A DNA stretch of 64,000 nucleotides from Escherichia coli O157:H7 (GTDB lineage Bacteria; Pseudomonadota; Gammaproteobacteria; Enterobacterales; Enterobacteriaceae). The stretch lies in NCBI RefSeq assembly GCF_013167455.1, contig NZ_CP038328.1; one strand, given 5' to 3'. The position numbers and the translations under genes were made by a program. Below are positions 3,324-21,055 of the stretch, in pieces; position 1 is the stretch's first letter; each line of letters opens with the position of its first letter. Under the pieces are notes generated by a model. That model ran no database searches, was not told the DNA's origin, and saw only the letters and a list, made by a program, of their open reading frames with translations.

Positions 3324-3493
3324 AATGGCTCACTCAAGCTTGCTCACGATTGATTCCAGTAACAAACCGTATTGTGTAATTATTTCTATAGCAGATCGCT
3401 ATATAGGCTTGTATACATCGAATAATTTGAAAATCAAAGAGATAGGTAGATTTTCACTCGAAAGTAGTATTACGTGTAAGTGAGGAGTAATTA

Positions 3494-3507
3494 TTGTTCG
3501 GTATCAA
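3494..3507 (-). promoter_or_regulatory. Candidate FNR box (TTGATACCGAACAA on minus strand) in dmsA upstream region
   Basis: Minus-strand sequence TTGATACCGAACAA fits TTGAT-N4-ATCAA at 8 of 10 half-site positions; dmsABC is known to be FNR-activated; exact position relative to the transcription start not verified. Confidence 0.45.
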
Positions 3508-3513
3508 AGGGAG

Positions 3514-3542
3514 ACAAAAAAAGCGCCCGTAGGCGCTTTTTA
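3514..3542 (-). terminator. Intrinsic terminator downstream of serS (A-run / GC hairpin / T-run, potentially bidirectional)
   Basis: aaaaaaaGCGCCcgtaGGCGCttttt; perfect GC stem flanked by A-run and T-run, 20 nt past the serS stop. Confidence 0.6.
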
Positions 3543-3561
3543 GATTCAGAAAAATTGGGTA

Positions 3562-18133: not shown

Positions 18134-18160
18134 AGGTCGGTTTAACCGGCCTTTTTATTT
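18134..18160 (+). terminator. Intrinsic terminator downstream of infA
   Basis: AGGTCGGtttaaCCGGCCT hairpin (one U-G wobble as RNA) followed by TTTTTATTTT. Confidence 0.6.
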
Positions 18161-18273
18161 TGTGATATGCATGAAGTACTTTGGAAGTATAAGTCCATAA
18201 CTTGTCTCGATGTAGATATACTGCACAAGTTGTTTACAGTATGAGCAAACAATAATTATCATTAAAATTCTTC

Positions 18274-18302
18274 TTGACCGTTTTACTCCAACTCCCTATA
18301 GT
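18274..18302 (+). promoter_or_regulatory. Candidate sigma70 promoter of serW (TTGACC -35, 17-nt spacer, TATAGT -10, GC-rich discriminator)
   Basis: TTGACC at 18274-18279 and TATAGT at 18297-18302, followed by the GC-rich discriminator agcgcccc typical of stringently controlled stable-RNA promoters; about 45 nt upstream of the tRNA. Confidence 0.5.
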
Positions 18303-18345
18303 AGCGCCCCGTTGCCACCCATGAGGTTTGGCAGCAAAACAATTT

Positions 18346-18433
18346 GGTGAGGTGTCCGAGTGGCTGAAGGAGCACGCCTGGAAAGTGTGTATACGGCAAC
18401 GTATCGGGGGTTCGAATCCCCCCCTCACCGCCA
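18346..18433 (+). tRNA. serW: tRNA-Ser (anticodon GGA)
   Basis: 88-nt GGTGAGGTGTCCGAGTGGCTGAAGGAGCACGCCTGGAAAGTGTG...GGGGGTTCGAATCCCCCCCTCACCGCCA; long variable arm, acceptor stem pairs, encoded CCA, anticodon loop cctGGAaa. Confidence 0.95.
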
Positions 18434-18445
18434 TATTTAAAGAAG

Positions 18446-18474
18446 AGCTCGTACGAAAGTACGGGCTTTTTTTT
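18446..18474 (+). terminator. Intrinsic terminator downstream of serW
   Basis: AGCTCGTAC-gaaa-GTACGGGCT hairpin (GNRA loop) followed by eight T. Confidence 0.7.
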
Positions 18475-18476
18475 CG

Positions 18477-18564
18477 CATTTTATCTGCCTGTACGGCAGT
18501 GAACATGGTGGGCGGGTGGAGTATGTTACCAGTGAATTTCTAAGCTGCCTGTACGGCAGTGAAC
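18477..18564 (-). CRISPR. Orphan type I-F CRISPR remnant: two 28-bp repeats (one degenerate) and one 32-bp spacer
   Basis: 18537..18564 is the exact reverse complement of the E. coli type I-F repeat GTTCACTGCCGTACAGGCAGCTTAGAAA; 18477..18504 shares its first 20 nt and is degenerate over the last 8; intervening spacer is exactly 32 nt (18505..18536); no cas genes in the window. Confidence 0.8.
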
Positions 18565-18713
18565 TCAAATACTACACGTTTAGCCCGTTGTTAATAAAGC
18601 AAAACCATCTCATTTTCCTGCTGTCACCCTTTTTTATCCTTACCTTTTCCAGCAGCACTAATTATCAACAAATTACCTTCACCTCCAAAAATAGGTTTTT
18701 CACCGTTCCACCC

Positions 18714-18754
18714 CATAAATAAAAAGTCCGTAACCTCTTTCGAGATTACGGACT
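18714..18754 (-). terminator. Intrinsic terminator downstream of clpA
   Basis: On the minus strand AGTCCGTAA...TTACGGACT hairpin followed by TTTTTATTTAT; 25 nt past the clpA stop. Confidence 0.65.
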
Positions 18755-18778
18755 TCACCAACCTACCTGACAATCAGA

Positions 18779-21055
18779 TTAATGCGCTGCTTCCGCCTTG
18801 TGCTTTTGTGCACTCTGGAATCCGTAAGTCAGCTCATTTTTCTCTTTATCCAGCGCGACGGTGACCTGACCGCCGTCCACCAGCGAACCAAACAGCAGTT
18901 CGTTGGCGAGCGGTTTTTTCAGGTTGTCCTGGATGACACGCGCCATCGGACGTGCGCCCATTGCCCGGTCGTAACCTTTCTCGGCCAGCCAGTTACGCGC
19001 TTCCTGGCTCACTTCCAGAGAAACACCTTTCTGATCCAGCTGAACCTGCAACTCGACGATGAATTTATCCACCACCTGATGGATCACGTCAGTTGACAGA
19101 TGATCGAACCAGATAATGTTGTCGAGACGGTTACGGAATTCCGGTGTAAAGATCTTCTTGATCTCTTCCATCGCATCGGTGCTGTTATCCTGGTGGATAA
19201 GACCAATGGATTTGCGCTCAGTTTCCCGTACCCCGGCGTTAGTGGTCATCACCAGTACCACGTTACGGAAGTCCGCTTTGCGTCCGTTGTTATCGGTCAG
19301 CGTACCGTTGTCCATCACCTGCAACAGAATATTGAACACGTCCGGGTGCGCTTTCTCGATTTCGTCCAGCAGCAGCACCGCATGTGGATGCTTGATGACC
19401 GCATCAGTCAGCAAACCGCCCTGATCAAAACCAACGTATCCCGGAGGCGCACCAATAAGACGGCTGACAGTATGGCGTTCCATATACTCGGACATATCAA
19501 AGCGCAGAAGCTCAATGCCCAAAGCTTTCGAAAGCTGTACCGTCACCTCTGTTTTCCCGACCCCGGTAGGGCCGGCAAACAGGAACGAACCGACCGGTTT
19601 ATGTTCGTGACCTAAACCTGCACGCGCCATCTTAATGGCTTCAGTCAGCGCCTCAATGGCTTTATCCTGACCGAAGACCAGCATTTTCAGGCGATCGCCG
19701 AGGTTTTTCAGGGTATCGCGGTCACTCTGAGAAACACTCTTCTCTGGAATGCGTGCAATACGGGCCACCACGGACTCAATATCCGCCACATTAACGGTTT
19801 TCTTGCGTTTGCTTACCGGCATCAGACGTGCGCGAGCGCCCGCTTCGTCGATAACATCAATGGCTTTATCCGGCAGATGACGATCGTTAATGTATTTCAC
19901 CGCCAGCTCTACCGCCGCACGCACCGCTTTTGCGGTATAACGCACGTCGTGGTGTGCTTCATACTTCGGTTTCAGGCCATTGATGATTTGAACAGTTTCT
20001 TCGATCGACGGTTCAGTAATATCAATTTTCTGGAAGCGACGCGCCAGAGCACGGTCTTTCTCGAAAATGTTGCTGAACTCCTGATAGGTTGTCGAACCAA
20101 TTACGCGAATTTTACCGCTGGAGAGCAACGGTTTGATTAGGTTAGCCGCATCAACCTGACCACCAGACGCTGCACCCGCACCGATAATGGTGTGGATCTC
20201 ATCAATAAACAGGATGCTGTTAGTGTCCTGCTCCAGCTGCTTGAGCAACGCTTTAAAACGTTTTTCAAAGTCGCCGCGATATTTTGTGCCCGCTAACAGA
20301 GAACCGATATCGAGAGAGTAAATCGTACAGTCAGCCATCACTTCCGGCACATCGCCCTGAACAATTCGCCAGGCAAGACCTTCTGCAATCGCGGTTTTAC
20401 CGACACCAGATTCCCCCACTAGCAGCGGGTTGTTTTTACGGCGACGGCAGAGAACCTGAATAGCACGCTCCAGCTCCTTCTCACGACCAATCAGTGGGTC
20501 GATTCCGCCCACGCGCGCAAGCTGATTCAGGTTCGTCGTGAAATTCTCCATACGTTCCTCCCCACCAGCTTGTTCTTCGCTGTTTGGCTGGCTGCCAGGA
20601 TCAGAAGACTGTGTCGGCTCGTCTTTACGCGTGCCATGAGAGATAAAGTTCACCACATCGAGACGGCTGACTTCATGTTTACGCAACAGATATGCCGCCT
20701 GCGACTCCTGTTCGCTAAAGATAGCGACCAGAACGTTTGCACCGGTAACCTCATTGCGACCGGAGGACTGGACATGGAAGACCGCACGTTGCAGTACACG
20801 CTGAAAACTCAGCGTCGGCTGTGTGTCGCGCTCCTCTTCACTGGCAGGCAGAACGGGTGTGGTTTGTTCAATAAAGGCTTCCAGTTCCTGACGGAGCGCA
20901 ACCAAATCCACAGAACACGCTTCCAGCGCCTCCCGGGCAGATGGGTTACTGAGCAGCGCCAGTAACAAGTGCTCGACGGTCATAAACTCATGACGGTGCT
21001 CGCGCGCTCTGGCGAAAGCCATATTTAAACTGAGTTCCAGTTCTTGATTGAGCAT
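18779..21055 (-). CDS. clpA: ATP-dependent Clp protease ATP-binding subunit ClpA
   Basis: Start set at [24 protein letters not shown] (758 aa); two AAA+ modules with Walker A GESGVGKT and GPTGVGKT. Confidence 0.95.

Follow-up and report, generated by a model that had tools for sequence, protein, structure and literature searches.

Orphan I-F arrays of Escherichia coli and related systems

The CRISPR-III locus of Escherichia coli corresponds to the clpA–infA interval, and a single array found there without cas-F genes has been named CRISPR4.1-2; at least one such repeat unit was present in all E. coli strains analysed, with cas-F genes in few (PMC3903273). In E. coli the PAM of the I-F system has been defined as GG, read on the target strand and located at the leader-proximal end (PMC3506596). 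In passages of two reviews from the Mojica laboratory, the orphan CRISPR4 arrays termed "anti-cas" are attributed to Diez-Villasenor 2010 and to Almendros et al. 2016, the latter cited there as Nat Microbiol 1:16081 (PMC8616872, PMC5972030). As given in those passages, Almendros et al. (2016) found orphan I-F arrays to be constitutively expressed, to elicit interference against plasmids with the full I-F cas set, and to prevent the establishment of an I-F system (PMC8616872, PMC5972030). The initial annotation of the locus described here had mentioned a proposal that spacers in such arrays match I-F cas genes and so block re-acquisition of the system; the same passages attribute an experimental test of this proposal to Almendros et al. 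(2016). Minimal arrays have also been described in phages and mobile elements, where mini-CRISPR arrays with one spacer, one full repeat and one truncated repeat borrow the Cas proteins of the host (PMC8616872).

The window analysed here is a 64,000-nucleotide stretch of DNA from E. coli O157:H7 (NZ_CP038328.1). Between serW and clpA, where most E. coli have a short array of this kind, it carries an orphan type I-F CRISPR array, confirming the original observation. Every sequence-level feature by which an orphan CRISPR4 (CRISPR4.1-2) anti-cas array is recognized was found, and by its sequence the array is assigned to that class. The comparisons below concern its architecture, the target of its single spacer, and its relation to complete I-F loci and to the orphan arrays of other strains.

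Architecture of the array

The coordinates of the array and its surroundings are collected in Table 1. The leader-proximal repeat (GTTCACTGCCGTACAGGCAGCTTAGAAA) is complete. It is the only site of its kind in the 64-kb window when up to three mismatches are allowed, and 100 dinucleotide-preserving shuffles gave 0 matches. It matches Rfam RF01317 (CRISPR-DR4; gathering score 35) over the full model, including the 5-bp stem CUGCC/GGCAG, and is identical to the repeats of the I-F strain arrays in E. coli ZJ3920 (L001) and in L004. The terminal repeat (GTTCACTGCCGTACAGGCAGATAAAATG) is identical to the complete copy over its first 20 nt (18485–18504), which include the Cas6f hairpin, and matches it at 3/8 positions in the last 8 nt (18477–18484), which merge into the region downstream of the serW terminator; its CRISPR-DR4 score lies under the gathering score. 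The two copies are 60 nt apart from start to start and thus enclose a spacer of 32 nt, which reads TTCACTGGTAACATACTCCACCCGCCCACCAT in repeat orientation. The initial annotation had described an exact reverse-complement copy of the I-F repeat, a second copy degenerate in its last 8 nt, a separation of 32 nt and this spacer sequence, and all four descriptions hold. In local folds both repeat hairpins are intact in the window allele, with equal energies (Table 1). When the whole array RNA is folded, the two identical repeats pair together in the minimum-free-energy structure, which is no better than that of shuffles (z = -1.2), so that the whole-array fold is uninformative and it is the individual repeat hairpins that carry information.

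Table 1. Features of the serW–clpA interval and Rfam matches elsewhere in the window.
Feature	Coordinates	Strand	Evidence
serW with its terminator, convergent with the array; distal boundary	18346..18474	+	ARAGORN; Rfam tRNA; terminator scan
Terminal repeat, last 8 nt degenerate	18477..18504	-	29.7 bits (Rfam CRISPR-DR4); hairpin -8.6 kcal/mol; junction in 7/7 other sampled orphan arrays
Predicted mature 60-nt crRNA, if Cas6f is supplied	18485..18544	-	Predicted from the Cas6f/Csy4 cleavage site
Single 32-nt spacer against I-F cas1	18505..18536	-	cas1f matches of 31/32, or 32/32 (E69); 5'-CC PAM
Leader-proximal I-F repeat, complete	18537..18564	-	Exact match; Rfam CRISPR-DR4, 50.1 bits; hairpin -8.6 kcal/mol
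Array leader, A/T-rich, between clpA terminator and first repeat	18565..18722	-	Homology with the leader of the clpA-proximal I-F array
clpA intrinsic terminator; upstream boundary of the leader	18723..18756	-	Terminator scan: 15-pair stem, then T run
STnc130	3414..3548	+	Rfam
naRNA4 (CssrE)	45957..46037	-	Rfam
RybB	62046..62124	+	Rfam

The array is embedded in the usual E. coli gene order, cydC-aat-infA-serW-array-clpA-clpS-cspD. It lies within the clpA–infA interval (aat-infA-serW-array-clpA-clpS), and no I-F cas gene is present in the window: searches with the six Cas proteins of ZJ3920 (tblastn) gave no match at E<=0.01. What is present is thus an orphan array rather than a complete system. 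On its distal side, serW encodes a tRNA-Ser with anticodon GGA (18346–18433). Its terminator (18439–18474) ends 2 nt before the degenerate repeat, in agreement with the initial description of that repeat as adjoining the serW terminator. On the other side, clpA is encoded on the - strand, with its stop codon at 18779–18781. Since the array reads towards serW, its leader is the stretch directly downstream of the clpA terminator. Ordinary enterobacterial sRNAs are present elsewhere in the window, with Rfam matches to STnc130, naRNA4 and RybB above the gathering score.

The leader is homologous to those of cas-linked I-F arrays, as seen both in a 95% alignment to ZJ3920 (below) and in a ten-leader alignment spanning orphan and cas-linked arrays, in which the ~60 nt next to the first repeat are nearly invariant. 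When the - strand of the leader was scanned for promoters with a simple consensus search, no sigma-70 site was found. The sequence TTGATA at 18663–18668 (-) was noticed by eye as a possible promoter element; no convincing -10 element accompanies it, and no promoter was assigned. Position 18696 of the window, within the leader, is T on the + strand and G in 9/9 other clpA-side leaders as well as in the infA-side leader of ZJ3920. This single-base difference is private to the window and falls inside a conserved ACCCT motif (repeat orientation). It accounts for the best database match of the interval 18434–18780, to O145 and O157-like strains, being 99.7% and not 100%.

The region immediately downstream of serW varies among related strains. 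O145 strain RM9872 (L002) has a 179-bp insertion right after serW (L002 2822–3000) that is absent from the window, where the insertion point corresponds to 18433/18434. The inserted element, annotated as "RtT sRNA", has at its flanks a direct duplication comprising the 3' end of serW and the terminator. RtT is likewise annotated in ETEC6334, under the match to the 18434–18780 region.

Comparison with a complete I-F locus

The clpA–infA interval had been named in the initial annotation as the chromosomal site of the E. coli I-F system, and this is borne out by E. coli ZJ3920, in which the order is infA - CRISPR - serW - cas6f-csy3-csy2-csy1-cas3f-cas1f - CRISPR - clpA, with the six cas genes flanked by two arrays. 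Window positions 18265–18473 align to L001 3503–3711, from serW through its terminator, and homology ends at 18473. It resumes at 18536: positions 18536–19200 align at 95% to L001 12601–13263, comprising the first repeat, the leader and clpA of the clpA-proximal array, which places the leader on the clpA side as had been suggested. In comparison with ZJ3920, the window is without an 8.9-kb segment (L001 3712–12600) that begins just past the serW terminator and reaches the first repeat of the clpA-proximal array; the bulk of this array and all six cas genes lie in it. The infA-side array (L001 2853–3241) is likewise gone, with no remnant left. A leftover of this array or its leader was looked for in window positions 18157–18264, which have no similarity to that region of L001 and are the same in K-12. 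A weak direct repeat in the window (D2), considered as a leader remnant, was not supported as such. In ZJ3920 itself, csy2 (L001 5359–6282) is annotated as a pseudogene with an internal stop, and that I-F system may be inactive.

The spacer target

The spacer was searched against 5426 complete E. coli genomes (28 Gb), and matches were found in 2578 of them. Matches with no annotated feature beneath them were taken as orphan arrays; the remaining matches lie in genes annotated as cas1f. In I-F-bearing E. coli the spacer matches cas1f at 31/32 positions (E = 6e-6 in 28 Gb). It is a copy of the antisense strand of cas1f across codons 33–43. The protospacer in ZJ3920 lies at L001 12001–12032, on the strand antisense to cas1f, with CC directly upstream. 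CC is found immediately 5' of the protospacer in L001, L004 and E. coli strain E69 (L011) and in six metagenome contigs, in agreement with a PAM of GG on the target strand (PMC3506596).

The sole mismatch to the ZJ3920 gene is at spacer position 4, where the gene has G and the spacer has A. The base in question is the third of the Ser42 codon, which reads AGC in the gene and AGT in the spacer; the change is thus synonymous. Another cas1f allele, with 96% identity to this one, has an additional mismatch at position 10 and matches at 30/32. The position-4 mismatch is present in all 241 cas1f-bearing complete E. coli genomes, giving a match of 31/32 at best. A 121-nt cas1f query engineered to carry the A of the spacer matched these 241 genomes at no more than 99.2% identity, so that the collection of complete E. 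coli genomes contains no perfect target. The metagenomes likewise yielded no perfect target, all six contigs with this part of cas1f having G at position 4.

A perfect 32/32 match with CC was found in the cas1f of a single genome, that of E69 (CP089930.1), in a scan of one genome per species. The E69 cas1f is 91.9% identical to the common allele, and the leader and clpA end of E69 are 88% identical to the window. E69 (L011, 69–1052 and 924–955) is a divergent Escherichia labelled E. coli, whose I-F locus occupies the same site and includes an array of 37 repeats.

A cas gene, a phage and a plasmid had been named at the outset as possible sources of the spacer. The best match is to an I-F cas gene, cas1f, with its CC PAM. 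No match was found in the phage collection, and the plasmid collection gave weak partial matches only (E>=3), ruling out a phage or plasmid as the target. One of the weak plasmid matches, 22/25, falls in cas1f on a Vitreoscilla plasmid. The interpretation given in the initial annotation is thus supported, with the refinement that the cas1f match is 31/32 at best in 241 E. coli genomes and perfect only against E69.

Population pattern and other orphan arrays

The exact spacer occurs outside any annotated gene in 545 of the 5426 complete genomes, and cas1f occurs in 241 (~4%). No genome has both. This exclusivity is partly structural, since an array counts as orphan when the cas operon has been deleted from its site. 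Variants of the spacer occur at two positions in no more than four records, and one exact copy is on a record labelled as a plasmid; these cases could reflect misassembly, duplication, or a genome with both spacer and cas1f.

Short orphan arrays were said in the initial annotation to be retained at this site by strains without cas genes, and comparison with the CRISPR4 arrays of other E. coli bears this out. The seven other orphan arrays sampled (L002, L003 and L005–L009) have one to three spacers each. All seven share with the window the junction at which GGCAG is followed by ATAAAATGCGAAAAAAAAGC and the serW terminator, and all of their spacers match cas1f or cas3f of ZJ3920. Five of these spacers differ from that of the window, and four of the five have CC upstream of the matched sequence. 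That the anti-cas spacers differ while the junction is common to all implies that a single old deletion came first and that the spacers have since turned over. In nearly all strains sampled, the leader, the complete first repeat and the hairpin-forming 20 nt of the second remain intact. A further relative, a metagenome-assembled genome labelled "Proteobacteria bacterium" (L010), carries a K-12-type orphan array and adds nothing.

Some of these arrays show decay. The K-12 spacer (L003) has two mismatches to cas1f, the second at position 6, and the second repeat of K-12 (L003 1533–1560) has a G17-to-A change that weakens the Cas6f hairpin, to -1.4 from -8.6 kcal/mol. L006 and L009 have a 4-nt deletion that reduces the spacer to 28 nt. 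The decay in these three arrays fits with relaxed selection. Compared with the K-12 allele, that of the window has a single different spacer base (position 6: T, against A in K-12) and a second hairpin that is intact; the window allele, of the O157:H7/O145 type and carried by the 545 genomes with the exact spacer, is better preserved than the K-12 allele.

Proposed function and alternative explanations

It is likely that the array (CRISPR4, or CRISPR4.1-2) is an orphan I-F array left after cas deletion, with an anti-cas1 spacer that blocks incoming I-F systems. The proposed sequence of events begins with deletion of the six I-F cas genes between serW and clpA, which would have left behind the array's original leader, a complete repeat with its single spacer, and the second repeat over its first 20 nt. 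The window allele is predicted to be transcribed from its leader. On its own the array would be inert, because the cell is without Cas6f, the Csy complex or Cas2-3. Should the DNA of an I-F cas operon enter the cell, the incoming Cas6f would be expected to cut the resident transcript at its two intact hairpins. Cas6f/Csy4 cleaves at the 3' base of the repeat hairpin, and the predicted product is one 60-nt crRNA made up of an 8-nt 5' handle (CUUAGAAA), the 32-nt spacer and a 20-nt 3' hairpin (GUUCACUGCCGUACAGGCAG). The degenerate last 8 nt of the terminal repeat lie outside this crRNA, so that their decay would be without consequence. The incoming Csy complex would then load the crRNA and recognize the incoming cas1, and Cas2-3 would degrade the DNA that carries it. 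As the incoming Cas proteins would be degrading their own carrier DNA, the I-F system would be unable to establish.

The strength of this response should depend on the cas1f allele encountered. Position 4 is in the seed, where a mismatch is expected to make direct interference less effective and to promote priming. With the cas1f alleles found in E. coli genomes as targets, weaker direct interference and a shift towards primed spacer acquisition would thus be predicted; an E69-like allele would be matched perfectly. It is possible, though rather doubtful, that the synonymous Ser42 difference reflects escape of the circulating E. coli I-F systems from the orphan anti-cas1 spacer, or capture of the spacer from an E69-like system outside E. 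coli proper. A silent escape in the seed, if true, would be a record of an arms race between I-F systems and a widespread orphan anti-cas1 spacer.

An alternative that is unlikely, but that survives best among those considered, is that the array is an inert relic, a small neutral scar of the cas deletion without present function. The window has no cas genes, no promoter consensus was found in the leader, every cas1f allele encountered in the E. coli genomes and the metagenome contigs carries the seed mismatch, and the hairpin mutation and two mismatches of K-12 and the 28-nt spacers of L006 and L009 show decay elsewhere, all of which would suit a relic. A relic is harder to reconcile with the conservation of the leader, the first repeat and the 20-nt hairpin of the second repeat in nearly all sampled strains, even though the last 8 nt of that repeat are degenerate. 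A single junction combined with varied spacers, all against cas1f or cas3f, implies turnover by active I-F machinery after the deletion, and interference by native orphan arrays was reported in the published experiments, as these are described in the review passages (PMC8616872, PMC5972030).

Less likely still is a purely historical role, in which the anti-cas1 spacer was gained while the operon was present, self-targeting drove deletion of the operon, and the array has been idle since. The targeted cas1 would once have been ~300 bp from the array, which is in keeping with such an event. The same junction with different anti-cas spacers in different lineages is, however, hard to derive from one self-targeting event, and the variety of spacers suggests repeated encounters with I-F systems after the loss; moreover, a self-targeting origin is compatible with the main explanation rather than exclusive of it. 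The idea that the repeats are a chance match or a repeat of another kind, for example a REP element or a portion of either the serW or the clpA terminator, could appeal to there being only two copies, the second of which is under the Rfam gathering score and abuts a terminator, but it has a negligible probability and is refuted by the exact 28-nt I-F repeat match with none in shuffles, the Rfam score of the first repeat, the exact 28+32 periodicity, a leader homologous to those of real arrays, and a PAM-flanked protospacer in cas1f.

The favoured explanation, a resident array directed against incoming I-F systems, would make this a CRISPR array that acts against CRISPR-Cas itself, with the incoming I-F system made to destroy its own carrier DNA. 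Resident anti-cas arrays may help to explain why I-F cas genes are found in only ~4% of complete E. coli genomes (241 of 5426).

Comparison with known systems

Arrays of this class have been described before and examined by experiment, and the one in the window adds no new biology. What the present comparisons add is small: E69 has a perfect target, every other allele seen has the synonymous seed mismatch, and the O157/O145 allele is better preserved than that of K-12. One point possibly beyond the literature consulted is that, of the cas1f alleles seen, only a divergent one is matched perfectly by the O157/O145-type spacer, which differs from the cas1f of all 241 cas1f-bearing E. coli genomes by a silent change in the seed.

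The closest described systems are the orphan CRISPR4 anti-cas arrays of K-12 and the other sampled strains, with which the window array shares its locus, repeat, leader and the junction of terminal repeat and serW. Like them it has a spacer against an I-F cas gene with a CC PAM, and there is no difference in kind. With the complete E. coli I-F loci (ZJ3920, LF82, UTI89 and ATCC 11775) it has in common the chromosomal site, the repeat, the leader and the 60-nt periodicity. It resembles the mini-CRISPR arrays of phages and mobile elements in its minimal one-spacer architecture and in its reliance on Cas proteins encoded elsewhere. In contrast to those mobile-element arrays, it is chromosomal, and the Cas proteins available to it would come from the incoming DNA, its own target.
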